Below the pieces are notes generated by a model. The model ran no database searches. It saw only the letters and a program-made list of their open reading frames with translations, and was not told where the DNA came from. From a virus (taxonomy: Duplodnaviria; Caudoviricetes), in the IMG/VR virus record IMGVR_UViG_3300004244_000010, positions 7,322 to 71,321 of that record: a stretch of DNA of 64,000 nucleotides. The stretch is one strand, 5' to 3'. Both the position numbers and the translations under genes were made by a program. This document shows positions 2,008 to 55,411 of the stretch, in pieces (positions within the stretch are counted from its first letter, which is position 1; each line of letters begins with the position of its first letter).

Positions 2008-2235
2008 ATGCGAAAACTCGCGCTCACCATGCTCGCCGTGGCACTCAGCGGCTGCGCCGCCCAGGTCATCAGTTCCAGCCCGAGATCCGTGGTCGTGAAG
2101 GCCAGCCCGCTAAAGCCCCAAGAGGCTCAAGACCTGGCCAGCGCCGAATGTGCTAAGCATGGGCGACATGCACAGCTGGCGGGCCGCCCAGATCCTGAAG
2201 GCCCGCCGCAGTGGCTGTTCAACTGCACTACCTGA
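2008..2235 (+). CDS. Small lipoprotein (moron; possible superinfection exclusion)
   Basis: Signal peptide with lipobox LSGC, two further Cys; GGGGGA upstream; opposite strand to the late operon. Confidence 0.8.
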   Translation: MRKLALTMLAVALSGCAAQVISSSPRSVVVKASPLKPQEAQDLASAECAKHGRHAQLAGRPDPEGPPQWLFNCTT

Positions 2236-5200
2236 GCTTGTCGGCCAGGTCGCGCATGACCTTGGCCTTCTTCTCCTGCTCGACCTGCGCCGCCTGCTGA
2301 AACTCGTCCGCGCTGATCTTGTTCGTCTGGCGCTGGCGCTTCAGCTGCGCAATGTTGCGGTCGATCTCTGCCGTCTCAGCGGCAGCCTTGGCCTGCAGAT
2401 TGCGGCGCATCACATCGGCCGGATAGCTGCCCAGCTTCAGCCCAAACGACGCCGCCACTGCCTGCGTGACCGACATTTCCCGCCCAAAGGCATCGGTCCG
2501 GCCCTTGGCTGCGTCCACCACGCCAGTCGTGGCATAGGTGCCGGGCAGGCCCAGCACGTTCGGCGCGAAGGCCTTGTAGAGGTGGTCCGCCACCTTGCCG
2601 GCCTGCTGCGTGGCCGTGTCGGTTTCCAGGCTGATCGCTTTGCCGGTGAAGGCTGAGCGGTTCAGCAGCAGCTCGCCCATGATCACCAGCGGGCCGCCGG
2701 GCTGCAGGCCGGGAAGCACCGGCACCGCGGAGTGCCCCTGCCCAACGTCCAGCACATCACCCACGGGGATGAAGCGGCGGATGTCCAGGTAGATCGGTGA
2801 GCCGTTGGCATCGTTCCAGGGCATGCGGATGAGCTTGGGCACCATGCCCCAGATCTTTCCAGCCTTCTCTTCCGGCAGCAGCTTGCGCTCATCGTCATCA
2901 CCGCCGCCGCCGATCGCCACGCCCAGCGCGTTCAGCGCGCCGGCCAGCATCATCAGCTTCATCAGCTTGTGCGGCCGCTTGCCCATGGTTTCCAGCAGCA
3001 TAGGCACAGCCCGGTAGGTGAAGGAAATGAACGGCCAGCCTGAATTGCGCATGGCCTGGATCCAGGGAGCATTCACGCTGTAATCCAGGAAGGACTTGCG
3101 CGATACCTTGCCGGCGGCCAGGTCCGTCGCGCCATCCTCCTTGGCCTTGAGCCAGGCGGCCAGCCGGAACACATCGTCCTCGGACTGGTAGAGCTCCAGC
3201 AGCGAGGTTGCCTCGGTGCCGATAACCTTGCCGGGCTTCGAGCCCTTGAAGGCTTCCCAGGCGCTCGGGAAACGCAGCATCAGCGCATGCTGCAGGGCTG
3301 TCATCACACCCACCTGGGCCTGCACCGATTGCCCGGCCGTCGCAGCCAGTTCAGCCTCAAGCGACGCCAGCAGGGGCTCGAGCTGTCCCTTGGAGATCTC
3401 GTTGGTGGCCCAGCCGCCGATGTCGCCGCCGGAGTCCTTGTAGCGATTCAGGATCTGGGCCGCGGCCTCACGGTCAGCGATGCCGGCGCGCGCCGCCGCG
3501 TTGCCCGCCCGCCCGATCGCGCCCTTGCCATCGCGGCCGTGGGCGGCCAGCAGGATCCGCAGGGCCTTGGCGGTGTGCGTCGCGCCGACATCGTGCCAGT
3601 CAGCCATCACGAAGTTCGACATCACGTTGTTCATGTGCACCGCTGGGCTGAGGGCGGTTTTGGCCGTCTTCCACATGGACAGGATCTGCGCATAGGTGTC
3701 ACCGAGGGGCTTGAACTGGCCATTCACCGTCTGGCGCAGGTCGTTCCAGACTGGGCCGGGCAGGTAGCGGCCGGCGAGCTTGCCGTACTTGGGCACCGCT
3801 GTGCCAGGGATCTTGATGTCTGGCACCCGCACCCACTCGCCTGGCTTGAAGGTGTCCAGGTACCGCTCCGACGCGTCGACCACCTGGCCTGGAATGGTTT
3901 CCCCCTCCTTCAGGGCATAGGTATGGGCCAGCCACTCCAGGTGGCGGCCAACCTCCACGTCATGGATCATGCCGTGCAGGGTCTTGGCAATCGCGAACCG
4001 GGCCTCGTCCACCTCACCCATCGTCTCGCGCTCTTCCTTGGTGAAGTCGCGCCACAGCACCACCTTGTCACCCTTGGTGTCGCGAGCCTCCCATGTGCCG
4101 GCCTTGTCCCAATCGCCGTACTTGGCCGGTAGCGCCTCGCCAGCGGGGAAATAGTGCACCTCCAGCAGCTTGCCCCGTGCCTTGCCCTCCATGCCTTCCA
4201 GCGGCGTTGTGCCCTCACCGCTGGCGGAATGCCGCTCCAGGCGCAGGAACTTCTCGCCCTTGAGGCTGGCATCGGCCTTGCCGGCCTGGGTCTTGCGCTT
4301 CCACCACTCCGGCGCGACGTTCTTGATCTGCTGCATGGTGGCGGCCTCGGTCAGGCCGCGGCCCTTGTACTGGTCGCCCAGGATCGAGATCACGCGCGAG
4401 CGCTTGGCCTTCTCGCCAGTGGTCTGCTCGATCACATGCTTGGCATAGGAGCGACGCAGATAGGCGAACTTGTTGCGCTCGTAGGCGTCGGGCGTCAGCT
4501 GCCCCATCGCCACCGCATCGCGCGACAGGCGATCGATCATCTGCTGCACCTCCTGCAGTACCACCACCGACTCGGCGGGCAACTGGTCCATCAGCGCCTT
4601 CGCTTCGGCCGGGTTCACCTCATTCATCCAGGCATAGGCCACCCGGCTTTCGGCGCGGGTCAGGGTCGACAGCTTCTCGATCAGCGCGCCGGCCTGGCGC
4701 AGCTGCACGCGCTGGCGGCCCTGCAGCATGGCGCGCTGGTCGATCACCGCCTCGGGCACACCATAGTCGGACACCACGCCGGCCTTGATGGTTTCGGGGG
4801 TGTAGCGATCCAGCAGGTAGCCAGCCCGGCCGTAGATGGCGCCCATCAGGCGCTCGATGCCAGTCACCCGGGCAAGGCCCTTGGCAATCGCATCGATCGG
4901 CGCGCGGCTGCCGGCCTTGGTCTGGACGATGACCTCGGCGCGCTGGGCGGCATCCGCCTGGGTCGGGGCGCGGCTCAGCAAGGAATCGGCCGGATTCTTT
5001 GTGCGCCAGAGCGCGGCCAGCTTCTCGAACAGCGGATAGTTCCTGGCAAGCAGATCTTCGATGTCGGCATAGCCGCGCGCACGCGCCTCGGCCTGCAGCC
5101 ACTTCTCTTGGCGCGCGATGTCATCGGCCAGCGTGCCGGACAGCATGGTGACGCCGGCGGCATCCTTCAGGCTGCCGCCGCGCTTACCGGCCATATAGTC

Positions 5201-8200
5201 GCGCGCGGCCTGCACCAGGTTGGCGACGAACAGATCGGCGCGCTCCTGGTCGCTCAGCGTGCCATCAAGCCAGGCCCCCAGCTTGTCCGCCAACTTCACA
5301 TAGCCGCGCTGCGCCAGCCAGTCCCGCACCTCGGAAGTCAGCTTGCGCCACCCCTTGAGCTTGACCAACTGGCTGGTCGGGATGTCCACAATCACCTCTT
5401 CGGTGGCCTCAGCGATCGACAACTTGCCGCGGCGCTGCAACTCGGTGGCCGCTCGGCGCACGCTGGCGTTGTTCGCGTAGATCATGGCCATTGCAGAGCG
5501 AAGCGATCGGCCCAGCACTGCGCGCAGCCCCAGGTGGGCGGCCTCGTGCTCAGCCAGCACATGCTCAGCGCGGGCTTCGTCCTGCAGCCCGGACGCGAAC
5601 AGGTAGAACTCGCCGCCGTGCATGGCGCCCTCAACGTCGTTCCAGGCGCCCTGCTGCAGGATGTAGAGCTTCAGTGCAGGTGGTGCGCCGGATGGATCCT
5701 TGAGCACATGCACCGCCGGCATATTGGGCATGCCGGCCTTGATGCGATCGGCCAGGGCCTGCAAGGCCTTGATATCCATGCCGCTGCTGCCGGCGCCGCG
5801 CGACAGCTTTGAGCCCTCGGGGCTGGCCTGCTCTACCAGCCGGGCGGCCCAATCTGCGACCGCGCCGCCGTTGCTCGCTACCGCCTTTGCCACCGCCGCT
5901 TCAGCATTGGGGGCGTCGATGGTGAACCCTTGCTTGGTATCGATGCGCTCCACCCAGAAAGGCTTGTCATTGCCATCGGCCACGATCGCGGCCTCGATCT
6001 CCTGTGCCTCCTTCACCTTGTCGGCCAGCATTTGGGCCATGGGGAAAGGCGTCTCCAAGCGGCTGGCCAGCGCGTCCATCTGGGCGCGCGCCTCGGTCAT
6101 CCAGGTGCGCATGCGGGCCGGAAGCCGTGCCACATCGGCAATGGCGTTCTGCGCGCGCATGGCCAGGCCGGTCAGATTCGTACCCGGGTCCGTCACCAGG
6201 GTGGCATGCGCGGGCGTGTCCAGATCCAGGCGCGGCAGGTAATGGCCGGCCGCCTGCTCGGACCGGAAAGTGACATCAAATCCAGAGATCGACCCCACGT
6301 AGGTCGGCTTGGTTTCAACCCGGGCGGACAGCTCCTTGAACTTGTCCACCAGGGCCTGCGCCCACTCGGTCCGACCGTCAAAGGTCTTCCCGCCCACCTT
6401 GGCCTTGAACTTGTCGCCGGACAGATCCTGCACCTTGCCGGCGTCAGCCTCCGCCGCCGGCAGGCGCGCGGAGTTGAAGTTGGCGGTGTCGTTGGCGATC
6501 TGGTACTGCTGGCGGAAGCGCTGGCGCTGGTCCTCGTGCGCCCGGTACAGCCGCTGCAGCTTCTCGATCTCGGCTTTTGCGCCGGCCAGCTGCAGCACGC
6601 GCGGATCCTCGGCCACCATGGCCGCGGCCAGGTCGTACTGGCTCTGGCTATCCAGGTCTTCGATCTCGCGCAGGTTGGCATCGCCGGACAGGGCCTGGTC
6701 GATGAAGAACTGCTTGGACGCGAGCATCTTCCACATGTTCTCGTCGTAGGTGCCCTTGGCGGCGTAGGCGAAGACCTGCACCAGCGGGTTCTTGTTGCCC
6801 TGCCGCACGATGCGCCCCTCGCGCTGCTCCAGATCTGCTGGATACCAAGGCGAGTCCAGGTGGAACAGCGCCTTGAGTCGCTGCTGCGCATTCACGCCCG
6901 TGCCCATGTTCTTGCTGGACCCGATCAGGATGCGCACGCGGCCTGCATTCACGTCCTTGAAGAGCTTGAGCTTGTCGGAGGACTTCTTGTAGTCCGACAT
7001 GAAGGCGACCTGCCCCATCGGAATACCAGACTCGCGCAGGCGCTTCTCAAACCAGGCGCGCGCGTTGAAGCCGCGCGACGCGGCCACGCCGGCGCCAAAG
7101 CCGAGGTCAGAGAACACCATCATCGAGGCGCCCTTGTTCGGCTCGACCTGGCCGGCCTTGTCCAAGAACTCCATGCTGGCCGTGTCTTTGGCCGTGCGAA
7201 CCACGTCATCGATCAGGCGATTGAGCTTTGAGTCCGGGTCGCTTGGGAGCGACGGGTCCATGAACCGCATATCGATCGCCGCCAGGCGCCCATCACCAAT
7301 GATCTTGATGATGGGGTCCGGGTTGTTGGGCTCATCCTTGCTCGGCTTCCAGTCGCGCGAGGCCTGCATACGCGCCTCCAGTTCCTTCTGGAAGGCGGCG
7401 TAGTCGGCGCCCTTGGGCGTGATGATGATCTTGCGGGCGCCGCCCTCGACGCGCGGCCGCTTGTCGCCCAGCAGGGCCGCCAGGTGGTCCGAGGTCAGCA
7501 CATCCGCGAACTCGCGGAACATTTGCGTGAGCTCGGGCACGTTGACGAACTTGCTGAAGCGCGTCACCGGCTCATACTTGCCGGCGGCGTTGGGCTCAAG
7601 CACGGTGTTCTCGCGGCCGAACATCGAGGCCCATGAATCGAAGTCTTCCAGATTCCGGTCCGCCAGCGCCTGGCGATCCATGAACTTCTGCACCGTATAG
7701 AGCTCGGCCAGGGTGTTCGTCACCGGCGTACCGGATGCCATCACAAGTGATCGGCCGGGGGTCTTCTCTTCCAGGTAGCGGGACTTCATGTAGAGGTCGA
7801 AGGCGCGCGCAGAACCCGCGGAGCTGATGCCCTTGACCTGGCGATTGGTCGCAAAGTCCAGCTTTCGGTACTCGTGCGCCTCATCGACATACAGGAAGTC
7901 CGCGCCGAGCTCATCGAAGCGGACGTTCTTGTCCTTGCCGACCGACGACAGCGCCGCCTCCAGCTTCTGCTCCATGTTCTCGATCTGCTTTTCGATCTGC
8001 TTGATCTTTGGATCCTTGCGGCCACCCGACTTGCCATCCTCGCCGCCAGCTTCCTCCAGCGCAGCACGCAGGTACTCCAGCTGTTCCTCGATCATCTTGG
8101 CCTTGAATTCGGGATCCAGGTCCAGCAGCTTGAATGCCGAATGCGTGATCACCACACCATCGAGATCCGACAGGGCGACGCGCGACACGAAGCGGCGCCG

Positions 8201-11200
8201 GTTGTCGGTGTGGAAATTGTTCTCGTCGGCCACCATGAGGCGGGCCGCCGGGTAGAGCTGCTGCCACTCGCTGGCGAACTGCTGCAGCATGTGGTTGGGC
8301 ACCACGACCATCGGCTTCTTGATCAGGCCCAAGCGCTTTTGCTCCATGGCCGAGATCACCATTTGGAAGGTCTTGCCGGATCCCACCGCATGCGCAAGGT
8401 AGGTGTTGCCACGCTGCACAATGCGCCAGGCGCCGCGCTTGACGTGATCGAACACGCTGAAGGTCTTCGATGCCCCTGGCAGGGTCAGGTGGCGGCCGTC
8501 GAAGGCCCGCGGCACCGTCGTGTTGAAGGTGTCGTTGTAGATCTGCACCAGGCGGTCGGTCCGTTCTGCGTCGCGCCACAGCCAAGACTGAAACTCGTTG
8601 CGCAGGGCCTCCAGCTTCTGATTCGCCGCCTCGGTCGCTGACGCATCAAACACCGACTTGGCATCGCTGCCACTACCCACCTTGGACTCCACGCGGATCT
8701 TCCGACCGGTCAGCGCATGCTCAAGCAGATCACCGGCGTTGCGCCGGTCGGTGCCCCAGTCTGCGGTAGCGCGCATGCTGCTGCCGCCGCTGCGCTCTTC
8801 CACGATCCACTGCTTGGTGCGGGGGTTCCACTCGACGCGCGCGCGCACGCCGGCCGTCTCCTGGATGAACTGCTGGTAGATCTCGCCGGGGATCCAGTTC
8901 ATGCCCAGGCCAGCATTGATCTGGCTGGGGGTCTTGGGCGCTGGCTGAGCGGCCTCGAGGGCCGACACATTGCGCTCCAGGCTCTTGTCGGCCTTGAGGG
9001 CCTCGCGCGCCACGTCCAGCTTGCGCTTCACGTTGCCGCTGAGGTAGTCGTCCGCCGTCACCCACCCGCCCTCGGGGTCGCGGTACACGGCCGAGCCCAG
9101 TGCCTCGATTGCTTCAGCCTCGCTCATGCCCAGCCGATTGGCGATGGTGGGCACATCCACATGGCCAAGATCGTTCAGCGTCGACAGCAGCGCATCAGAC
9201 GGGGAGCTGATGGAAGCCTCGACCGGCTTGCCGAGCACGCGCTGGGTCAGGAACTCGCTGGGCTTGATCTCGCCCGAATCGTCGTTCACCTTTTCCAGGG
9301 CCGCCACCAGCGTCCAGTCCGGGTCATCCACCAGCTTGTTCAGCACGGTGTAGACGCGGCGCGCCTCTTCATCGGTGAAGACTTCGCCGGTTTCCTCATC
9401 CGTCACCTTGACCTTGACCGTCTTGGTGGTGAACTGGTTCACATAGCCATGCTTCTTGGTGAAGGCGGCGTAGGCCTTTTGCAGCGCGGCCAGACTGGCC
9501 TCCCAGGCGCCGTCGTTCAGCTGGTCGTAGTGCGCCTGCTTGAGCGCGTCTCGCAGCGGCACGAAGTCCTTGATGAGCTCGATATCCTTGGCCGACTTCA
9601 GCTCCACCCGTTGGCCCACGCCACCCTCGCGCACCATCAGCGCGCCGGCATCGGACACGTAGTAGTTGCCCTCCTTCTTGGCCTTCGGGTTGAAGTCGAT
9701 CTCGCGCACCTTGGCCGCCTCGGCGGCGGACCCGCGATCGGCCGAGTAGATCCCGGAAGGCAGGTTCTCCACCGCCTTGTCGAACAGGGCTTCGATGTCG
9801 CCATCCAGCGGCGTGACGGTGTAGTCGCGGTCCTTGTACATCGAGCCGGTGTCGGCGTGCTGGCCCAGCACCATCGACGGATTGGCATGGAAATATTCGT
9901 TGACGCTGTACTGCGCGCCGTTGACCGTGAGCGGCACCGACTTGGCCCAGGGCTGCGCCTGCTCGAAAGTCTGCCCCGGCACCTTCTTGCGCAGGAACAG
10001 CACATCGGTAACTACCTCGGTCCCGGCGTTCTTCCTGAAGGCTGTCTGTGGCAGGCGAATGGCGCCCACCAGGTCAGCCCGATCGGCCAGGTACTGGCGC
10101 GCCTTGTCGTCCAGCTTGTCCATCGTGTAGCGGCTGGTGACGAACATCACCAGGCCGCCGGGCTTCACGCGGTCAATAGTCTTGGCAAAGAAGTAGTCGT
10201 GCAGCGGCATCGCCAGCTTGCCGTACTCCGGGTCGCCCAGGATCTTGGTGCCAGAGAACGGCGGATTGCCGGCGGCCACGTCGTAGAAGTTCTTCGGCAG
10301 CTTCGAGTCCACAAACGACTCCACCAGGATTCGCTCATCCGGGAACAGCTGCTTCAGGATCCCGCCCGTGATCGAGTCGAACTCGATGCCGGTGTAGATC
10401 GAGTTGTTGGCCATGCCGGCAGGCATCAGGCCGGGAAACACGCCAATGCCGGCGCCGGGCTCCAAGATCGTGCCGCCGTTGAAACCCAGGCGCTCCATCG
10501 CGCGCCACATCGACTGCACCACCGCCTTGCTGGTGTAGTGCGCGTACTGGGTAGAGCGCGAGGCTTCCGCCCACTCGTCGTCGCTCATCACCTTCTGCAG
10601 GCGCTCGCGCAGCTCCAGCCAGCGGCGCGTGCCGGCATCGGGCTTGGCCTTGTCCAGCTGCGCGCGATCGATGCTGGTGACGCTGTAGTAGCTCAGGGGC
10701 GCGCTTGATGCGGCTTGCAGGACGCGGAAGGCCTGGTAGAAACCGGCGTCGCGCGAGTTCAGCGCGCGGCCGAGGCGATCGAGCGCCTGCACCGCACCTT
10801 CGTAGTCGGCCAGCGCCGCGGCCTGCTGGTCCAGTTTCTTGCCGAAGAGGCTGTTGGCCACCTCGGACGATCCCCAGCCGACGAACTTGGCGAGCACCTG
10901 CTGCTCGGCGCGCGTGGCCTGCCGCCCCTCGGCCTGCAGCTTCTTCAGCAGCTCGACCGCATCGACGTTCTGGGCCGCCTTCTTGACCCAGCTGCCCTCA
11001 TAGGTGAGGTCATCCGGCCCGAACTCGTAATTCAGTCCTGACTTTGCGGGGATGTCTCGCCCTGCGGGAACTCCAGCGCGGCGGCCAGCACGGCCTCGCG
11101 GTTCAGCGCCTCGGCCATCTTCATCTTGGCCGCGCACTCCACGGTTCCCAGCCTGTCCCAGTTCTCCTTGATCCGCTGCCGCTGCGTCAGCTGCACCGTT

Positions 11201-14200
11201 TCCGAAGAGATCTCGCTGGCCAGGTTCGCCGCGTACTGGTTGAGCTCGCCCTTGGCGGCTAGACTGCGATGCAGCTCCGGCGCTTTTTCCTTCAGCGCTT
11301 CCTTGATCAGGTTGTGCAGTTGCATCGGATGCCCCTTGCTGTTTGGTCGAACTATATCCGTTTCCGGTTTTTTCTGCTACATTTGAGTTGGAAGGTTCCC
11401 CCATGAAGTTGCCATCGAAGTTCCCCCCGGGTTGCGAGTTTTTCGAGCGCGAAAGCGGCTCGCTCGCCGTCGTGATCCCCGGCGAAGGTCCGATGTCGCT
11501 GGTGCTTGGGGAGCTCGTGCCGGCCAAGGTCTGGCCGCCCCTGTCCGAGCCCCGCAAGCTCTCGGAGGCCGCATTCCTGGAGGCCGCCGCGGCGGAAGCT
11601 GCCGGGTAATACTCGGCCTGGGCCTTGATGACGGCCTGCTGTGTCTCCGATCCCTTGGGCTGCGTGCGCTCGATCTCGTAGAGCTTGTGGCCCTCTTCCC
11701 CTTTGGCGGCGAGTATTTCCGGCACGTTGATCTGGATCTCGGCCTGCACGCCGCTGATCATCACGTTCACCAGGACATCCCCATACCCGGAGCCGAGGAA
11801 GCCTTCGTTCTTCACGTCCGTGCCGCGCAGCGTGAGATCGGTCCGGTTCTTGACGCGGCCCTTGACCACCTCGAACTCGCGGTAGATCTGATCCAGCACC
11901 TCCTGGGCGTCTTCATAACTTGACACCACGATCGTGCTGCGCAGCAGGTCGCGCATCTTGCCGGTGTCAAAGCCTTCTTCCACCAGCTTTTCAGCGCCCC
12001 TACCAAGGCCCTTGAGCGGCGCCAGCATCTGGCCCAGCGCGCCGGTGCGCTTGGCAATGTCGATTACCTTCTGGTCATACGTCACCTTGACCGCGGCCGC
12101 AGCGTCAAGCATTGGCTTCAGCAGGCCTTCGGCGCGCGCACGGTCCTCGGCGGCGATCTCGACCGGCGGTGCCTCCTTCAGGAACTGGTCGATATAACCG
12201 CGCGCCCGGCTCACCAGCTCCTTCGGCAGGAAGGACTCGGTGCTGGGTGCCTTGAAGTTGTCGCGCTTGCTGTCGTACGCACGGCCATCGATCATGGCGG
12301 CATCCGACGCCACGGCTTGCGCCGGTACACCGAATAGGTCATCAGCGGTGCCGCGCAGGTCCAACGCCTGCTCGGCCGCCTTGCGATAGGTGCTGTCCCC
12401 GATCTTGTTCCAGAGCGGCTTCGTTCTGGGATCTGCCTTGAGCTGATCCTTGACCCACTTCGTCGCAGCCTTCAGATCGGTTCCGACGATGCGGATCGCA
12501 GCATCGAAGAGCTTGACCAGCGTAGGCATCAGGCCAGGCGTGTTCTCGGGGAGCATGGCTGCCCGGGTGTGCTTGCTGGCGATGTCGGCCAGGTCGGCCA
12601 GCGCATCCTTGAAGTCCCGCTTGGCCTGCGCGCGCACGCTGGCCAGGTCGGCCGCACCGTCTGAAGCGCCCACGCTGGGAAACTGCGCTACCTCTTCCAG
12701 CAGCTTCTGGATCGGCGCATCGAAGCGAATGACCTTGACCGGCTCACCCATCGCCATCTTGGCCAGCCATTGGTGATGGCCGTCCAGCACGTAGCCATCC
12801 GATGAAACCAGCACAGAGCGGTTGCGCCCCTCTTCCCAGGTGGAAAACCTGGCCACCTTGGAGCGCGAGAACTCGGCTTGCGTTGGCTTCAGCGTGTCGC
12901 CATCGACCTCTTCCTGGTGGTCGGTGATGCCGCGTGCCTCCAGGAAGTTCACCAGCGCGCCGCGGTGCTTCTGCTGGATCTGCGGCATGTCTGCCCGCGG
13001 AATCCCCAGCGTGCCTGACTCAGGAGGGAAGGCTACCCATTCTTGGCTTGCGTCGTTGGCAGCGGCTCGGGCAGGCCCATCGCCTTGATCGCCGCCATCA
13101 CGGCGCGCCGCAGCCTCGGGTTTGTCTCCAGCCGGTTGACCAGCTTGCGGGTCTTTTCCAGCGTCTCGCCGCTGGGAGTCTTCGGCAGTGCCATCAATGC
13201 TCCTTCGGGCCGCGCCCATCAAATCGGATTTGGCGGGCGCCTGCGGGTCTTCCAGCAGAGAGCCCTGGTTCGGGTCGCCGGCGGCGTCCAGCGCTTCCAT
13301 GTAGGCGACGATGAAATCAGCCATGCGGCGCGGCCGGCGCGCGTTGTCGGCCAGGAACTGCAGGATCTCGCGCGTCTCGGCGCTGTGCTGCTCGCCCAGC
13401 AGGCCGCCCTGGGCCAGCGCATCGGCCAGCGATGTGCCGGCCTCCTTGAGGCGCGAGAGCTCTTCCACTGCGCCCAAGAGCTCTGGCGTGATGTCGGCAT
13501 CGAAACGCACGCCCTGGTCCACCGCCTCGCGCATCTGTGCCACGCGCGGTGCGGCCAGCATCAGCGCCTTGGACACGTTGCGCAGGTTGTCGTCCATCGA
13601 CTCCACCATGCGCTGCAGCACCGGCGAATCGCCGTAGGCCTTTGCCAGCACCGCATTGCGGATTCGCACGTAGCCGGACGAGCTGAGATTGCCCGCGCTG
13701 TCGATCATGCCGGCCTGCTCGGTAGCCGGCAGCTTGGCCATGAAGCGGCGAACGAACGGGCGCGACGCCGGGCCGGAGAACCCGCCGCCGTCATCCGGCT
13801 GAAGATCCTCCATCGAGTCGATGCGCTTGGCGTCCGACCGGGCGAGCTCGCTGGGGCTCATCTGCGCCACGGTCGACGCATTGGCCTGGCGCGCGAACTC
13901 GGCGCGGTTCACCGGCGTCTGGCGCACGCGCACCAGCACCGGCTTGGCCATGGCATCCACCGATTCCGGCGTGATGCCGAACTGGGCCGCGTTGTCGCGC
14001 AGAAACTGCCGGTAGTCCTCGGCCTTCTGCCCGTTGGCCTGGTACACGCGCTTGAGCGCGATCGTGCGCGCGTTGCCAGACTCCACCAGGCCATCGGCTC
14101 CGACGATGGGCGCGCCATTGGCCGCATCGGCCGAAAGCCCCAGGCGTGCGGGGTCCAGCTTCTGCACGATGCCGGAGATCTGCATTTCGCTGGCGGCGCG

Positions 14201-15676
14201 CTCGCGCTCGCGCGGCTGCAGCTCCTGCGGGTAGAGAGGGTTCTGGCGCAGGCCCTCATCGTGCGATGTCACCAGGTCGCCAGCGTCCATCAGCGCATAG
14301 CTGGCAGCCAGGCGGGCGCCCGACTCGGTGCTGAACGAGGTTTGTGCACCCGGCAGCGAAACGGGCCAGTCCTTGGTCAGTTCGGCCCGCTGCTGCACGA
14401 GCTCGGCGCGCTTCGCCTGGAGCTCGCTGCGCTCCTGGTCGAACATCGGCCCATACCCAGCCTCGGGCCGGTTCAATTCAGCAAGGCGCTCATCCAGCCG
14501 GCCGGCCTCAGCGTCAAGCGTGTCCACGCGCTCGAGCGCAGTGCCATCAGACGGCGCGCGCAGCGCCTTTTCAGAAGCGCTGGGCTCTACCAGTCCGGCC
14601 TGGGCATCGGTGAGTCCACCCTTGGCGAGTCCGGTAGCTCCGGCAGCTCCCGGTCCGCCTGACGTGCCATCGCTTCCCGCTGCCTGCGGCGCTTGACCTT
14701 GCCCGGCTTCTGCTGGGGCGCCGGTGCTGCCCGTCTGGTCTTGGACACCCTGCCCCTCCTTCGAGAACGAACTGACCGCGGCGTTGTAACCGCCGCCGGC
14801 CCCGCCCATGGCCGCGCCGCTGATCAGGCCCAGGGCCGCGGCATTGCCAACCCCATCCGTCAGCGGCTTGCCAAGGGCGAAGTTCTGCCACATCTGCTCC
14901 TGAATTGACTGGGGCAGTTCCTCAAACACCCCTTCGGAAATGCCAGAGCCCAACACCTGCTTGACGAAACCGGCCGGCGAATTGGCCAGCTTGCCGGTGG
15001 CCAACATCACGTCAACGTCGCCCAGGCCAAGGCGGCCGGCCATCTTCCCGCCGGCAGCACCGAACAGCGCGGTACCGGCACCGGACGCCAGCGCCGCCGC
15101 AGCCTGCTCGGGCGTAAGCAGCCCGTCAGCGGTTTCACCGCGGATTTGCTCGGCAGCAGAGCCGGCGCCAATCACGCCCTCACCCAGCGCGGCAGCCACC
15201 CAAGGCGCTACGCGCGTCGATGCCTTCATCAGGCCTCGCGCAACGCCAGCGCCGCCGAGCATCTGTGGAATCGACTCGCCTACAGTGGTGGCGATCACGC
15301 TGGGGTTGTCGATCGCTGCTTTGGCGGTATCGATGAAGCCCTCGGCGCCGCGCACAGCACGATTTGCCTCCTGCTGCGGGTCCGAATAGGCCGCATCGAG
15401 GATCTTCTGGGTTTCGTTGGGCCGATAGCCTGCCTCGTCCAGGAACTTGCCGACTCGGCCACCGGTCGGGATGTCGACCAGACCCACCAGGGCCTGGGGC
15501 AGGCCCACCGCAGCCTTTACGGCAGTGACACCTACGTCCGAAGCAATATTGCCGGCAGTGCGCTCAGGCCGCGGCGCCTGAGCCTTTGGTGAGCCGAAAA
15601 CCTCATCGTCTGACAGCAGGCCGGGGGCCGGTTTTGCGGTGCCAAATACTTCGTCATCTGTCAGCAGCTTGGTCAT
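2228..15676 (-). CDS. darB: Giant DarB-like polyvalent virion protein (~4,480 aa): DdrB-ParB-like, ParB-like, RelA/SpoT-like, N6-adenine MTase, SNF2/SF2 helicase, zincin-like and C-terminal domains
   Basis: ESGNARTIAL; VSSDGYVLDGHHQW; DLLRSTIV/GYGDVLVNV/AEIQI/HKLYE; EPGAGIG + NPPF; AHAVGSGKT, DEAH, SGTP; HEAAH. Start is ATG 15676 or TTG 15691. Confidence 0.92.
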   Translation of the reverse strand: MTKLLTDDEVFGTAKPAPGLLSDDEVFGSPKAQAPRPERTAGNIASDVGVTAVKAAVGLPQALVGLVDIPTGGRVGKFLDEAGYRPNETQKILDAAYSDPQQEANRAVRGAEGFIDTAKAAIDNPSVIATTVGESIPQMLGGAGVARGLMKASTRVAPWVAAALGEGVIGAGSAAEQIRGETADGLLTPEQAAAALASGAGTALFGAAGGKMAGRLGLGDVDVMLATGKLANSPAGFVKQVLGSGISEGVFEELPQSIQEQMWQNFALGKPLTDGVGNAAALGLISGAAMGGAGGGYNAAVSSFSKEGQGVQDQTGSTGAPAEAGQGQAPQAAGSDGTSGGPGAAGATGLAKGGLTDAQAGLVEPSASEKALRAPSDGTALERVDTLDAEAGRLDERLAELNRPEAGYGPMFDQERSELQAKRAELVQQRAELTKDWPVSLPGAQTSFSTESGARLAASYALMDAGDLVTSHDEGLRQNPLYPQELQPRERERAASEMQISGIVQKLDPARLGLSADAANGAPIVGADGLVESGNARTIALKRVYQANGQKAEDYRQFLRDNAAQFGITPESVDAMAKPVLVRVRQTPVNRAEFARQANASTVAQMSPSELARSDAKRIDSMEDLQPDDGGGFSGPASRPFVRRFMAKLPATEQAGMIDSAGNLSSSGYVRIRNAVLAKAYGDSPVLQRMVESMDDNLRNVSKALMLAAPRVAQMREAVDQGVRFDADITPELLGAVEELSRLKEAGTSLADALAQGGLLGEQHSAETREILQFLADNARRPRRMADFIVAYMEALDAAGDPNQGSLLEDPQAPAKSDLMGAARRSIDGTAEDSQRRDAGKDPQAGQPAGDKPEAAARRDGGDQGDGPARAAANDASQEWVAFPPESGTLGIPRADMPQIQQKHRGALVNFLEARGITDHQEEVDGDTLKPTQAEFSRSKVARFSTWEEGRNRSVLVSSDGYVLDGHHQWLAKMAMGEPVKVIRFDAPIQKLLEEVAQFPSVGASDGAADLASVRAQAKRDFKDALADLADIASKHTRAAMLPENTPGLMPTLVKLFDAAIRIVGTDLKAATKWVKDQLKADPRTKPLWNKIGDSTYRKAAEQALDLRGTADDLFGVPAQAVASDAAMIDGRAYDSKRDNFKAPSTESFLPKELVSRARGYIDQFLKEAPPVEIAAEDRARAEGLLKPMLDAAAAVKVTYDQKVIDIAKRTGALGQMLAPLKGLGRGAEKLVEEGFDTGKMRDLLRSTIVVSSYEDAQEVLDQIYREFEVVKGRVKNRTDLTLRGTDVKNEGFLGSGYGDVLVNVMISGVQAEIQINVPEILAAKGEEGHKLYEIERTQPKGSETQQAVIKAQAEYYPAASAAAASRNAASESLRGSDRGGQTLAGTSSPSTSDIGPSPGITTASEPLSRSKNSQPGGNFDGNFMGEPSNSNVAEKTGNGYSSTKQQGASDATAQPDQGSAEGKSAGAASQSSRQGRAQPVRGEPGQRDLFGNGAADAAAADQGELGQAGNRGVRGQDEDGRGAEPRGRAGRRAGVPAGRDIPAKSGLNYEFGPDDLTYEGSWVKKAAQNVDAVELLKKLQAEGRQATRAEQQVLAKFVGWGSSEVANSLFGKKLDQQAAALADYEGAVQALDRLGRALNSRDAGFYQAFRVLQAASSAPLSYYSVTSIDRAQLDKAKPDAGTRRWLELRERLQKVMSDDEWAEASRSTQYAHYTSKAVVQSMWRAMERLGFNGGTILEPGAGIGVFPGLMPAGMANNSIYTGIEFDSITGGILKQLFPDERILVESFVDSKLPKNFYDVAAGNPPFSGTKILGDPEYGKLAMPLHDYFFAKTIDRVKPGGLVMFVTSRYTMDKLDDKARQYLADRADLVGAIRLPQTAFRKNAGTEVVTDVLFLRKKVPGQTFEQAQPWAKSVPLTVNGAQYSVNEYFHANPSMVLGQHADTGSMYKDRDYTVTPLDGDIEALFDKAVENLPSGIYSADRGSAAEAAKVREIDFNPKAKKEGNYYVSDAGALMVREGGVGQRVELKSAKDIELIKDFVPLRDALKQAHYDQLNDGAWEASLAALQKAYAAFTKKHGYVNQFTTKTVKVKVTDEETGEVFTDEEARRVYTVLNKLVDDPDWTLVAALEKVNDDSGEIKPSEFLTQRVLGKPVEASISSPSDALLSTLNDLGHVDVPTIANRLGMSEAEAIEALGSAVYRDPEGGWVTADDYLSGNVKRKLDVAREALKADKSLERNVSALEAAQPAPKTPSQINAGLGMNWIPGEIYQQFIQETAGVRARVEWNPRTKQWIVEERSGGSSMRATADWGTDRRNAGDLLEHALTGRKIRVESKVGSGSDAKSVFDASATEAANQKLEALRNEFQSWLWRDAERTDRLVQIYNDTFNTTVPRAFDGRHLTLPGASKTFSVFDHVKRGAWRIVQRGNTYLAHAVGSGKTFQMVISAMEQKRLGLIKKPMVVVPNHMLQQFASEWQQLYPAARLMVADENNFHTDNRRRFVSRVALSDLDGVVITHSAFKLLDLDPEFKAKMIEEQLEYLRAALEEAGGEDGKSGGRKDPKIKQIEKQIENMEQKLEAALSSVGKDKNVRFDELGADFLYVDEAHEYRKLDFATNRQVKGISSAGSARAFDLYMKSRYLEEKTPGRSLVMASGTPVTNTLAELYTVQKFMDRQALADRNLEDFDSWASMFGRENTVLEPNAAGKYEPVTRFSKFVNVPELTQMFREFADVLTSDHLAALLGDKRPRVEGGARKIIITPKGADYAAFQKELEARMQASRDWKPSKDEPNNPDPIIKIIGDGRLAAIDMRFMDPSLPSDPDSKLNRLIDDVVRTAKDTASMEFLDKAGQVEPNKGASMMVFSDLGFGAGVAASRGFNARAWFEKRLRESGIPMGQVAFMSDYKKSSDKLKLFKDVNAGRVRILIGSSKNMGTGVNAQQRLKALFHLDSPWYPADLEQREGRIVRQGNKNPLVQVFAYAAKGTYDENMWKMLASKQFFIDQALSGDANLREIEDLDSQSQYDLAAAMVAEDPRVLQLAGAKAEIEKLQRLYRAHEDQRQRFRQQYQIANDTANFNSARLPAAEADAGKVQDLSGDKFKAKVGGKTFDGRTEWAQALVDKFKELSARVETKPTYVGSISGFDVTFRSEQAAGHYLPRLDLDTPAHATLVTDPGTNLTGLAMRAQNAIADVARLPARMRTWMTEARAQMDALASRLETPFPMAQMLADKVKEAQEIEAAIVADGNDKPFWVERIDTKQGFTIDAPNAEAAVAKAVASNGGAVADWAARLVEQASPEGSKLSRGAGSSGMDIKALQALADRIKAGMPNMPAVHVLKDPSGAPPALKLYILQQGAWNDVEGAMHGGEFYLFASGLQDEARAEHVLAEHEAAHLGLRAVLGRSLRSAMAMIYANNASVRRAATELQRRGKLSIAEATEEVIVDIPTSQLVKLKGWRKLTSEVRDWLAQRGYVKLADKLGAWLDGTLSDQERADLFVANLVQAARDYMAGKRGGSLKDAAGVTMLSGTLADDIARQEKWLQAEARARGYADIEDLLARNYPLFEKLAALWRTKNPADSLLSRAPTQADAAQRAEVIVQTKAGSRAPIDAIAKGLARVTGIERLMGAIYGRAGYLLDRYTPETIKAGVVSDYGVPEAVIDQRAMLQGRQRVQLRQAGALIEKLSTLTRAESRVAYAWMNEVNPAEAKALMDQLPAESVVVLQEVQQMIDRLSRDAVAMGQLTPDAYERNKFAYLRRSYAKHVIEQTTGEKAKRSRVISILGDQYKGRGLTEAATMQQIKNVAPEWWKRKTQAGKADASLKGEKFLRLERHSASGEGTTPLEGMEGKARGKLLEVHYFPAGEALPAKYGDWDKAGTWEARDTKGDKVVLWRDFTKEERETMGEVDEARFAIAKTLHGMIHDVEVGRHLEWLAHTYALKEGETIPGQVVDASERYLDTFKPGEWVRVPDIKIPGTAVPKYGKLAGRYLPGPVWNDLRQTVNGQFKPLGDTYAQILSMWKTAKTALSPAVHMNNVMSNFVMADWHDVGATHTAKALRILLAAHGRDGKGAIGRAGNAAARAGIADREAAAQILNRYKDSGGDIGGWATNEISKGQLEPLLASLEAELAATAGQSVQAQVGVMTALQHALMLRFPSAWEAFKGSKPGKVIGTEATSLLELYQSEDDVFRLAAWLKAKEDGATDLAAGKVSRKSFLDYSVNAPWIQAMRNSGWPFISFTYRAVPMLLETMGKRPHKLMKLMMLAGALNALGVAIGGGGDDDERKLLPEEKAGKIWGMVPKLIRMPWNDANGSPIYLDIRRFIPVGDVLDVGQGHSAVPVLPGLQPGGPLVIMGELLLNRSAFTGKAISLETDTATQQAGKVADHLYKAFAPNVLGLPGTYATTGVVDAAKGRTDAFGREMSVTQAVAASFGLKLGSYPADVMRRNLQAKAAAETAEIDRNIAQLKRQRQTNKISADEFQQAAQVEQEKKAKVMRDLADKLR
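11032..11325 (-). CDS. Overprinted TnpV-like protein (97 aa) nested in darB, alternative frame
   Basis: LKEKAPELHRSLAAKGELNQY...KMKMAEALNREAVL resembles the TnpV pattern; AAGGGG 6 nt before ATG; own promoter; the darB frame here is a low-complexity G/R/Q/A linker. Confidence 0.7.
   Translation of the reverse strand: MQLHNLIKEALKEKAPELHRSLAAKGELNQYAANLASEISSETVQLTQRQRIKENWDRLGTVECAAKMKMAEALNREAVLAAALEFPQGETSPQSQD
11351..11383. promoter_or_regulatory. Divergent promoter pair with phage operator inside darB
   Basis: Operator ATCCGTTTCCGGTT (11356-11369), identical to 48750-48763. Minus strand TAGCAG-17-TATAGT; plus strand extended -10 TGcTACATT (11375-11383). Confidence 0.7.
11403..11609 (+). 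CDS. Antisense nested small protein (68 aa), candidate antitoxin/immunity for the RelA/SpoT-like domain
   Basis: MKLPSKFPPGCEFFERESGSLAVVIPGEG...; GGAAGG 7 nt before ATG; extended -10 upstream; the darB frame opposite is an S/T/G/N-rich linker. Confidence 0.65.
   Translation: MKLPSKFPPGCEFFERESGSLAVVIPGEGPMSLVLGELVPAKVWPPLSEPRKLSEAAFLEAAAAEAAG
13033..13194 (-). CDS. Overprinted 53-aa basic helical peptide nested in a darB linker
   Basis: MALPKTPSGETLEKTRKLVNRLETNPRLRRAVMAAIKAMGLPEPLPTTQAKNG; AAGGAG 5 nt before ATG; by hand count ~7/52 codons end in A/T versus about half in the darB frame. Confidence 0.6.
   Translation of the reverse strand: MALPKTPSGETLEKTRKLVNRLETNPRLRRAVMAAIKAMGLPEPLPTTQAKNG
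14587..14748 (-). CDS. Possible overprinted 53-aa Arg-rich peptide nested in a darB linker
   Basis: GTG start with AAGGAGG ~6 nt upstream; MSKTRRAAPAPQQKPGKVKRRRQREAMARQADRELPELPDSPRVDSPMPRPDW; the darB frame here uses many GGA/GCT/CAA codons. Confidence 0.45.
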   Translation of the reverse strand: MSKTRRAAPAPQQKPGKVKRRRQREAMARQADRELPELPDSPRVDSPMPRPDW

Positions 15677-15710
15677 GGCAGGGCGGGTCAAAAAAGCGAC
15701 CCGCTGAGGC

Positions 15711-27618: not shown

Positions 27619-28086
27619 TCAGACGGCGCGATACAGCAGCGTCACGCCCAGCGTGCCGGCCACCGGCGTGGTGGGCGCGGTCGTCACCTTCACACCGACC
27701 TTACGTTCGGTCTGGGTGGCCTGCACCACCGCCATGGCGTTGCCGTTGCGTGCCAGGTTCTGCTGGAAGTCGGTGTTGACCGCGGTGGTGGAGCCCCAGG
27801 CCTTGCCGCCGTCAGCCGCAGCTGTCGACAAGTTCGCGGAGGCGCCGTCCCAGATACCGACCTGCAGCACCATGGCTGCAGCACCAGAGTCCATGTCGGT
27901 GCCATCCACCAGCAGGTCCACCGGCACGCAGCCCGGTGGCAGCAAGCCAATGGCGCCGATGGTGTTCAGGGCCAGATCGGCCGTGGCCAGATCCAGCGCG
28001 AAGCGCACCGCCACCACCTCGCCGCCAGCCGGCAGCACCGAGGGCTTGCGGCCCGTCAGGTAGTCGTTCGAGTTCGTGAAAGCCAT
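27619..28086 (-). CDS. Capsid decoration/cement protein
   Basis: 155-aa beta-rich protein directly after the major capsid gene; GAAGGAG SD. Confidence 0.75.
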   Translation of the reverse strand: MAFTNSNDYLTGRKPSVLPAGGEVVAVRFALDLATADLALNTIGAIGLLPPGCVPVDLLVDGTDMDSGAAAMVLQVGIWDGASANLSTAAADGGKAWGSTTAVNTDFQQNLARNGNAMAVVQATQTERKVGVKVTTAPTTPVAGTLGVTLLYRAV

Positions 28087-47506: not shown

Positions 47507-47797
47507 CTACTTAGCGAGGCGCGTGGATGCAGGCAGGGGGGCGCGTCCGCGGCGGGGCAAGACTGCCTTGTCGTGGACGCGAGCTGCTGATGCACGACTA
47601 CGCCGTTCCTTGCGGTCGTGCGCGTCAAACCATTCCAGGATCGCGTCGGCATGGTTCACGCGCGGGATGGATTTGCGCAAAAAGATCCGGCTTACCGTGG
47701 CCTGCGCCACGCCGGTTTCTTTGGCAATGCGTTGATGCAGGCCCACCGCGTCGTCCAGGCGCCGCAGCAGTTCGTCATAGGTCTTTTCGCGCTTCAT
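47507..47797 (-). CDS. cro: Cro-like HTH regulator
   Basis: RIAKETGVAQATVSRI; divergent from cI. Confidence 0.8.
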   Translation of the reverse strand: MKREKTYDELLRRLDDAVGLHQRIAKETGVAQATVSRIFLRKSIPRVNHADAILEWFDAHDRKERRSRASAARVHDKAVLPRRGRAPLPASTRLAK

Positions 47798-47803
47798 GCG
47801 GTC

Positions 47804-47874
47804 AGTGTATCCGCTATCGGTTATTCATGAAACCCCCGTCGCATATCCGCCAGCGGCACAATCCGCAAACCGCT
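47804..47874. promoter_or_regulatory. cro/cI switch: leftward promoter plus three operators
   Basis: Minus strand TTTCAT-17-TACACT; operators ATCCGCTATCGGTT (47809), ATCCGCCAGCGGCA (47845), ATCCGCAAACCGCT (47861). Confidence 0.75.
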
Positions 47875-48405
47875 ATGGAACTAAAAGACATACTCGCAAT
47901 GCGCCTGCGCGCGCTGATGGACGCCAGGCCCGATCTGGACACCCAGACCAAGGTCAGCAAGCGCGCCGGCGTTTCGCAGTCCACCGTGCAGCGGGTGCTG
48001 AATCGAGAAGTGGCCACGAACCTTGATGTGATCTCAGATCTGGCCAAGTGCTTCAGGGTTTCTCCCCAGGATCTTCTCGCACCGATGCCGGCCGATCGTG
48101 TAACAGAGCGTGTCGTTCCGTCTTACGATGAGCAGGAGCTTCTATTGGCGTGGCGCGGACTTTCTGATGCGGATAAGCACCGCATCATGGCGTTCGTCAG
48201 TATCTCGCTGGCCGCTGAAAAAAAGGGAGCGGACAAAAAGGAAGCGCGGGGGGAACTGAACGTGGACGAGGTTAAAAGGGTGCCGGCCGCTGCTCTCGCA
48301 GCGGTTAGACGCACCTCGGTTAGGGAGCCGGACAAGCCAACTCCACTAACCAAGAGGGAACATGGCACCGACCAACAAACCAAACGAAAAGGTCGCCATT
48401 CTTGA
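47875..48405 (+). CDS. cI: CI-like XRE repressor lacking an S24 peptidase domain
   Basis: TQTKVSKRAGVSQSTVQRVL HTH; DEQELLLAWRGLS C-terminal region. Confidence 0.85.
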   Translation: MELKDILAMRLRALMDARPDLDTQTKVSKRAGVSQSTVQRVLNREVATNLDVISDLAKCFRVSPQDLLAPMPADRVTERVVPSYDEQELLLAWRGLSDADKHRIMAFVSISLAAEKKGADKKEARGELNVDEVKRVPAAALAAVRRTSVREPDKPTPLTKREHGTDQQTKRKGRHS

Positions 48406-48727: not shown

Positions 48728-48768
48728 ATCCGTTATAGGTTTACATATCATCCGTTTCCGGTTATTCT
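48728..48768 (+). promoter_or_regulatory. Early promoter 1 with two operators
   Basis: TTTACA-17-TATTCT; ATCCGTTATAGGTT and ATCCGTTTCCGGTT. Confidence 0.8.
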
Positions 48769-48803
48769 GCATCCGTGGTCAGGAACTAAGCAGAAGGAAC
48801 AGG

Positions 48804-48995
48804 ATGATCAGCCAGCAATTCATTCTCCCGATCTCGCATGAGATCACCGTTGATCTCTTCGCCGGCGCCGATGGCCGCGTGCTGCCAAAAGACGCTCAGG
48901 TTCGCATGTGCGGCAACTCGGTGTGCCCACCGCTGGCGGCCGCGATTGTGCGGTCCAACTATTCGGACTCGATGGAAATTCGTCGGGCCGCTTAA
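48804..48995 (+). pseudogene. Internally deleted C5-cytosine methyltransferase remnant (63 aa, in frame)
   Basis: Motif I (TVDLFAG) joined almost directly to motif X (QVRMCGNSVCPP); the catalytic PC and TRD are missing. Confidence 0.75.
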
Positions 48996-55333: not shown

Positions 55334-55374
55334 ATCCGTTATAGGTTGCATGTGAATCCGTTACGGGTTATTCT
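55334..55374 (+). promoter_or_regulatory. Early promoter 2 with two operators (paralog of promoter 1)
   Basis: TTGCAT-17-TATTCT; ATCCGTTATAGGTT and ATCCGTTACGGGTT. Confidence 0.8.
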
Positions 55375-55411
55375 TCAAACCGTGGTCAGAACCTAAACGA
55401 AGGAGTCAGCA

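Follow-up and report, generated by a model that had tools for sequence, protein, structure and literature searches.

Can a giant late gene of a bacteriophage house, in another reading frame, a complete small gene with a promoter and an operator of its own? This question is raised by the gene encoding a DarB-like polyvalent protein in a Caudoviricetes provirus, of which we analysed a window of 64,000 nucleotides (positions 7,322 to 71,321 of the 71-kb IMG/VR record IMGVR_UViG_3300004244_000010; 64% GC), whose DNA resembles that of the Bcep22-like podoviruses of Burkholderia and Ralstonia. The answer that we consider likely is that a gene of the TnpV kind is overprinted in the linker of the DarB-like gene, with its own ribosome-binding site and an operator-bearing internal promoter, the control region being shared with a divergent antisense gene. 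The host gene and the gene within it comprise the following elements (coordinates are those of the window):

2228 to 15691, minus strand: giant DarB-like polyvalent virion gene of 4,487 amino acids (aa), in which 11610-11032 is read as a low-complexity linker.
11032 to 11325, minus strand: nested TnpV-like gene (P0001), 97 aa counting the stop codon, in the +1 frame of the giant gene.
11332 to 11337, minus strand: predicted Shine-Dalgarno sequence AAGGGG, 6 nt 5' of the ATG.
11000 to 11077, minus strand: giant-frame motif AGVPAGRDIPAKSGLNYEFGPDDL, the first conserved one of the methylase module, overlapping the disordered tail of the small protein.

The original prediction had described a 97-aa open reading frame (ORF), preceded by the AAGGGG element, in another frame of darB, and this proved correct: the ORF runs from 11325 to 11032 on the minus strand, in the +1 frame, between the N-terminal modules of the giant protein and the first conserved motif of its methylase module. 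The first indication that this ORF is used came from codon bias. The GC content at third codon positions (GC3) of the giant frame is 0.8-0.97 on both flanks, and over 11325-11032 it falls to 0.3-0.45 while that of the small frame is 0.9-0.97, a switch that coincides exactly with the small ORF. Immediately upstream, the region 11330-11440 has a GC content of only 47-49% and is intergenic in appearance. A HMMER search of 1.84 billion representatives yielded 52 clusters of P0001 homologues at E<=1e-3 (17 at E<=1e-10), almost all of them 90-110 aa long, whose alignment displays the conserved motifs ALKxKAPxL...G.L and LEFPQD. The AlphaFold2 model built on a 47-sequence alignment reached a mean pLDDT of 91, with helices at residues 3-14, 16-25, 28-53 and 61-83 followed by a disordered tail (pLDDT 58), and the family is acidic (median pI of 5.1). 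Searches of NCBIfam and PHROGs with the small protein gave nothing useful, and a tblastn search of phages and plasmids with P0001 returned no match because the relatives are too diverged. The first locus scans, seeded with a 2-sequence alignment, recovered no loci, and the 47-sequence alignment was too diverse to serve as a seed; the relatives were reached through the flank of the giant gene on its methylase side, through profile searches and through the nested ORFs of the cultured phages Bcep22 and Gervaise.

The relatives fetched in this way were 5 viral contigs, 6 further loci from viruses or metagenome-assembled genomes, 2 more, and Bcep22 and Gervaise. Stop codons in the small frame of close homologues, the sign that the original prediction had set against itself, were not borne out: a homologous ORF with its own ATG, at the identical position and in the identical phase, was present in 14 loci (L002-L006, L033, L035, L038, L040, L042, L043, L044, Bcep22 and Gervaise). 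The ATG is kept in all 14, and a ribosome-binding site of the GGAG/GGGG type is found at the equivalent position in most of them. When compared with the family profile by hhalign, the nested ORFs of Bcep22 and Gervaise gave probabilities of 97% and 93%, respectively, and a tblastn search with these two versions located the nested ORF in 41 of the 41 matching GenBank/RefSeq records of Bcep22-like phages (10 of Burkholderia, 31 of Ralstonia), every one of which carries at that place only the coding sequence of the giant protein. No published description of a gene nested in DarB-like genes was found in the literature. The possibility that the small ORF is joined to the giant gene by a frameshift was also considered and is excluded by small-frame stops just 5' of the ATG: in the window such a stop lies 17 codons before the ATG, and in L033 and L035 a TAA precedes it immediately.

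No stop interrupts the giant frame across the small ORF in any of the 14 loci. When the small protein was kept and its synonymous codons were redrawn from each genome's own usage, the giant frame stayed open in 0.9-47% of the trials, depending on the locus. In addition, T amounts to 2-8% at the third codon positions of the small ORF, compared with 5-19% in the flanks, and these third positions are where stops in the giant frame would begin. At the protein level, in windows of 8 codons over codons 1-80, conservation is 0.41-0.78 in the small frame and 0.29-0.70 in the giant frame, the former being higher in nine of the ten windows, with one tie. The relation is reversed in codons 81-97, which encode the disordered tail of the small protein: here identity among relatives is 82-100% in the giant frame (AGVPAGRDIPAKSG) and 40-80% in the small one. 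The small gene thus occupies an unconstrained linker and ends at the start of the methylase module. Both frames are thus open and conserved beyond chance, and the nested frame displays protein-level constraint and a start of its own. On comparative grounds, the 97-codon ORF is a genuine overprinted gene, both frames are used and the giant one is kept free of stops by selection.

As for the host gene, its product contains the Pfam domains ddrB-ParB, Eco57I-type N6-methylase, SNF2-related and Helicase_C, matches the DarB-like family of anti-restriction proteins in PHROGs and, at the DNA level, is 67-72% similar to the darB genes of Bcep22-like phages over about 200 nt. It therefore unites an N6-methylase and an SF2-helicase module in a single protein of very large size, encoded in a phage morphogenesis block, as expected for a DarB-like polyvalent protein. 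In being a multi-module protein with ParB-like, N6-methylase and SNF2-helicase parts, it resembles DarB of phage P1 and the polyvalent proteins that phages share with conjugative elements (Iyer et al. 2017, PMC5512222, a work in which the terms TnpV, Bcep22, overprint, alternative frame and internal promoter do not occur). The linker between the N-terminal modules and the methylase-helicase, as read in the giant frame, is rich in G, A, R, Q and D and disordered. In P1, no such nested gene is annotated in darB; the small neighbouring gene ulx was examined as a possible analogue and rejected, since it lies downstream of darB.

If the small gene is real, how is it expressed? The elements of the candidate control region, and those of the early region with which they were compared, are as follows:

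11351 to 11356, minus strand: -10 hexamer TATAGT of the candidate internal promoter, matching the consensus at 5/6 positions.
11374 to 11379, minus strand: weak -35-like hexamer TAGCAG, separated from the -10 by a 17-nt spacer and overlapping the -10 of the divergent promoter.
11356 to 11369, no strand assigned: immunity operator, reading ATCCGTTTCCGGTT (minus strand: AACCGGAAACGGAT), located between two -10 elements set back to back and with an exact copy at 48750-48763.
11375 to 11383, plus strand: predicted extended -10 TGcTACATT of the divergent promoter, conserved in relatives.
11403 to 11609, plus strand: nested antisense gene (68 aa), diverging from the TnpV-like gene; its ribosome-binding site, GGAAGG, occupies 11390-11395.
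47507 to 47797, minus strand: cro-like repressor gene, flanking the cro promoter.
47809 to 47822, no strand assigned: operator AACCGATAGCGGAT, whose last base is the first T of the -10 of the cro promoter (TTTCAT-17-TACACT).
About 47872 to 48405, plus strand: cI-like helix-turn-helix gene, flanking the cro promoter.
48728 to 48763, plus strand: rightward promoter TTTACA-17-TATTCT with two operators, of which the second is the exact copy of the internal one.
55334 to 55369, plus strand: paralogous two-operator promoter (TTGCAT-17-TATTCT), with an equivalent operator word and position.

The original prediction had placed upstream of the small gene a TAGCAG-17-TATAGT promoter, with an operator in its spacer identical to that at 48750-48763, and had pointed to a geometry shared with the cro and both early promoters. 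All these sequence statements could be reproduced: the last base of the operator is the first T of the -10 at the internal site, at the cro promoter and at both rightward promoters (48.75 and 55.36 kb). Sites with up to two mismatches to ATCCGTTTCCGGTT number four, against 0.18 expected, and none of 100 shuffles reached four. The arrangement recalls that of the lambdoid PR/OR, in which the operator likewise overlaps the spacer and the -10 and identical words occur at several early promoters, including that of cro. The internal site differs from it in having a single operator, while the rightward promoters of this phage have two, and in its location, within a late structural gene at some 36 kb from the immunity region and between two back-to-back -10 elements.

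Comparison with the relatives provided a second line of evidence. The -10, as TATAGT or TATACT, is kept in 9 of the 14 loci at a fixed distance of 19 nt from the divergent -10, and the giant-frame residues encoded over both -10 hexamers are conserved within an otherwise variable linker. In six genomes (G000, G001, G003, G004, G005 and G009), with three operator types or more among them, the internal operator agrees with those of the phage's own early region. In G001, the internal word AACCAAAAATGGTT has three more copies (up to two mismatches) at 35-38 kb of the same genome and 0-1 in the other genomes. In G003 and G005, the internal word is ATCCGGAAATGGAT and good early promoters have ATCCGGATACGGAT|ATACT; in G004 and G009, the internal word is AACCGAAAACGGAT, together with a second copy that has one mismatch in G004 and is exact in G009. 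The internal operator is thus seen to co-vary with immunity type in the six related phage genomes. Furthermore, the internal promoter of G009 is near-consensus (TTGCAC-17-TACAAT) and that of Bcep22 reads TTGCGT-16-TACAAT.

Some observations weigh against an early, repressor-gated promoter at this place. TAGCAG agrees with TTGACA at only 2/6 positions, and this is why a scan for the sigma-70 consensus called no promoter at the internal site; with hexamers required to match at 4/6 positions or more and a spacing of 16-18 nt, acceptable pairs are found in G009 and Bcep22 but not in this window. In G006, G007 and G008, the internal spacer has no second genomic copy, and Gervaise has a strong ribosome-binding site and no clear promoter before the nested ORF. 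These exceptions imply that repressor control would be the feature of a sub-group and not of the whole family. Of the proposal that a repressor-gated, early-lytic gene lies inside a late gene, the reality of the gene and the co-variation of the operator in six genomes stand, while the weak -35 and the unmatched spacers of G006-G008 do not fit it. It is most likely that the internal site fires as the promoter of the nested gene in this phage, and what supports repressor control of that gene is comparison.

These observations also speak for the alternative that best survives: the nested gene would be real and made only late, by internal initiation on the late mRNA of the giant gene, the operator acting as a roadblock or anchor, or in the control of the antisense gene only. 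The unpromising -35, the silent promoter scan, the case of Gervaise and the unmatched spacers of G006-G008 would all be accommodated, as would the fact that the ribosome-binding site and the ATG are the most consistent features across loci. This explanation, however, leaves unaccounted for an operator/-10 geometry equal to that of the cro promoter, a -10 retained at fixed spacing in 9 of 14 loci, the good -35/-10 pairs before the nested gene or genes of G009 and Bcep22, and the conservation of the giant-frame residues over both -10s within the variable linker. We therefore regard it as unlikely, and return to the model of an overprinted gene with its own promoter.

In this model, the giant gene is translated straight through the nested gene, so that a disordered linker joins the N-terminal modules to the methylase-helicase, and selection keeps the linker frame stop-free while the small frame carries the codon bias and the conservation at the protein level. 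Translation of the small gene begins at an ATG preceded by a dedicated ribosome-binding site, most likely on a transcript initiated at the internal promoter (-10 TATAGT, weak -35) with one immunity operator in its spacer, and the same operator would serve the divergent promoter of the antisense 68-aa gene. In the lysogen, the cI-like repressor would silence both nested genes; after infection or induction, both would be turned on together with the early genes, and Cro may lower their expression again by the time late transcription reaches this stretch.

The antisense gene on the shared control region was absent from the original prediction. The minus strand of the relatives carries TGTA(G/C)C, the reverse complement of the divergent -10 (TACAnT), which is preceded by TG in this window and in L003, L004 and L006. 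As this -10 stands opposite TATAGT, a single operator lies between two back-to-back -10 elements. The 68-aa ORF is conserved in L002-L006, where it displays the motif M.VP..FPPGC.F...G..FVEFPDG.WF.LSDDG, and it has no match in Pfam, PHROG or NCBIfam; GC3 cannot separate it from the giant frame because their third codon positions coincide. In two other loci, an extra nested ORF in the +1 frame is found between the promoter-like site and the TnpV-like ORF (L035:4746-5000, 84 aa; L033:4749-4997, 82 aa). It has a high GC3 and its own ribosome-binding site, and its TAA abuts the ATG of the TnpV-like ORF (TAAATG), which suggests that the linker carries variable nested cargo.

The early region itself deserves a brief comment. 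The cro-like gene starts 6 nt after its -10 (TACACTgaccgcATG, window 47797-47830, minus strand) and would therefore be leaderless or nearly so; the layout in G001 is alike (TATCATcgcggcATG). The operator-bearing rightward promoters are followed by a conserved leader, CCGTGGTCAG(G)AAC (window 48764-48803 and 55370-55411, G001 near 36216 and G004 near 27760), which recurs in several phages with different operators and could be an RNA or antitermination element. Behind the 48.75-kb promoter, a 63-aa ORF (48804-48995, plus strand) has matches to DNA methyltransferase families that are confined to their C-terminal end (GNSVCPP motif), and seems to be a remnant or a much shortened version of such an enzyme.

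What kind of protein does the nested gene encode? TnpV, a widespread protein, was first named in the mobilisable transposons Tn4451/Tn4453, and P0001 had been likened to it by eye. The resemblance held for the family and less so for the individual protein: PF14198 (TnpV) was the sole match in a Pfam scan of P0001, at E=0.012 and 16.0 bits (15.9 bits in a six-frame search of its own genome), below the gathering score of 27 bits. However, 34 of the 47 family members matched PF14198 (best E=1.1e-11), and three relatives that match P0001 did so above the cut-off, namely P0027 (E=2.6e-9 to P0001; 29.9 bits to PF14198), P0047 (2.8e-5; 36.4 bits) and P0054 (6.1e-4; 31.2 bits). The top protein-atlas clusters for the small protein carry TnpV, and P0047 matches genes named 'TnpV protein' by NCBI on plasmids of the Arthrobacter group. 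Hence, although P0001 by itself stays under the gathering score, it is a distant TnpV relative by transitive homology, as judged from these profiles. With TnpV it shares a small size (about 100 aa), an all-helical make-up and an association with mobile elements; it departs from TnpV in being overprinted in a giant virion gene, in having an immunity operator and in the absence of a TnpX-type serine recombinase from its genome.

The position of the small gene directly ahead of the methylase-helicase module, on which its proposed role as a partner or regulator was founded, was confirmed, the first conserved methylase motif overlapping the end of the small ORF. A further observation in this regard came from plasmid gene order, looked at in two plasmids. 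On the Paenarthrobacter plasmid pYJN5-3, tnpV lies 41 bp before the gene for a 1,671-aa protein that matches the methylase-helicase of the window with 785 bits (33% identity over about 1,590 residues), and the methylase-helicase frame is open back through tnpV, with a +1 overlap. On pTC2, the equivalent DNA is annotated as one long helicase coding sequence, with TnpV in its +1 frame. Since both plasmids have the pairing and the overlap phase seen in the phages, the arrangement extends beyond this phage group. Gene order from phages to actinobacterial plasmids is thus suggestive of a tie between the TnpV-like protein and the methylase-helicase. Two further observations on the Paenarthrobacter plasmids may be recorded: the methylase-helicase frame opens with a conserved short peptide (MAGRKKQIDGQLSFEALW) located 5' of the tnpV overlap (L142:6889-7357 and L143:1129-1235), and the NCBI pipeline and older annotation differ on where this gene starts.

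Because its position before or inside that gene is the only consistent association, we think it most likely, although with low confidence, that the acidic four-helix protein acts on or with the methylase-helicase module. Two points count against such a role. Fold searches with the P0001 model (Foldseek against the PDB and BFVD, and a wide VIA-align search with a best Z of 6.1) returned generic helical matches only, so the argument about function draws on gene order. Moreover, the end of the small ORF coincides exactly with the onset of constraint in the giant frame, and the position of this ORF could reflect a tolerated overlap and not a functional tie. A broader proposal, which we regard as speculative and less likely than not, is that the linker ahead of the methylase-helicase in giant DarB-like genes is a conserved nesting site for an immunity-controlled early operon, made up of the TnpV-like gene and variable cargo (the antisense 68-aa gene or an extra sense ORF, for instance). 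TnpV would there be an obligate partner or controller, made early, of the methylase-helicase that is injected, and the cis linkage of the two would span actinobacterial plasmids and proteobacterial phages. Were this so, one stretch of DNA would be used in three ways at once: as the frame of a late structural protein, as an early nested frame and as an antisense gene that shares the operator.

A different function was suggested by the history of the family, as TnpV of Tn4451 was once postulated to act in excision from its similarity to lambda Xis (PMC3158075). The TnpV-like protein would then be an excision helper, that is, a recombination directionality factor, and repressor control would time excision; expression upon loss of the repressor would indeed suit such a factor. 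Nevertheless, no match to PF00239 (the TnpX-type serine recombinases) was found in G000, G001, G003, G004 or G008, this genome included, and G004, which is complete and has no match to PF00589 (the tyrosine-type integrases), still keeps both the gene and the operator. The family is acidic, no DNA-binding fold was found, and the gene tracks the methylase-helicase gene and not the integrase. For these reasons we give the excision hypothesis very little credence, and an action on or with the methylase-helicase remains the preferred reading.

A third alternative concerns the giant ORF, which would not be one gene: an upstream virion gene and a methylase-helicase gene would be split by a two-gene cassette, the frame being open across it by chance in GC-rich DNA. 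Such a reading would suit the intergenic appearance of 11330-11440 and the fact that NCBI lists tnpV and the helicase as separate genes on pYJN5-3, and the chance openness over the small ORF is non-negligible in the GC-richest relatives (0.47 in L033 and 0.31 in Bcep22; 0.10 in this window). On the other hand, the upstream part lacks a terminating stop codon, and the frame has stayed open in every one of the 14 diverged loci, for which the product of the per-locus chances is about 6e-19, a figure overstated by treating the loci as independent but clear in its direction. T is depleted at the third positions where giant-frame stops would begin and, in the Bcep22-like phage JC1, the giant protein is a virion component identified by 51 unique peptides (PMC9144972). 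A split gene is, in our opinion, slightly less probable still than the excision hypothesis. Finally, the notion that the 97-aa ORF is a chance open frame that makes no protein, which could appeal to the many long spurious ORFs in a window of 64% GC, is already contradicted by the comparative data (codon-bias switch, 52-cluster family, pLDDT of 91, TnpV profile matches, conserved ATG and ribosome-binding site, and codons 1-80 better conserved in the small frame save for one tied window) and is the least credible of all.

The closest precedent for the arrangement of a nested gene and its host is provided by the lambda-type spanins. Rz1 is, like the TnpV-like gene, a complete gene with its own start wholly inside another, in the +1 frame, and both products are made; Rz and Rz1 belong to one late transcript and form one complex. 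The nested gene described here would differ in its apparent own repressor-controlled promoter and its antisense partner, and in that the host gene reads the overlap as a disordered linker only. To our knowledge, long out-of-frame overlaps with strong comparative evidence are rare in dsDNA phages. The embedded spanin class has also been described in JC1 (PMC9144972).

The case indicates that a giant late structural gene can house an independently regulated early gene plus an antisense gene, if the model holds, and that TnpV is tied by position to anti-restriction methylase-helicases. The nested gene is invisible to annotation in all 41 records of cultured Burkholderia and Ralstonia phages. JC1, which integrates (PMC9144972), is reportedly among the phages whose characterisation was aimed at phage therapy, and biocontrol tests are said to have been made with Ralstonia phages of the broader group. 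The co-variation of the operator offers a simple, testable handle on the timing of the nested gene.

A last observation relates to the size of the family members. A search for longer, fused forms found P0070 only, which is weak evidence against in-frame fusions of TnpV to the methylase. Some family members, the metagenomic relatives P0070, P0050, P0053 and P0067, extend beyond LEFPQDD into other C-terminal sequence and may be free-standing or fused forms. A metagenome scan with P0070 was dominated by its unrelated C-terminal domain, and this extra domain has more than 325 relatives in JGI metagenomes.

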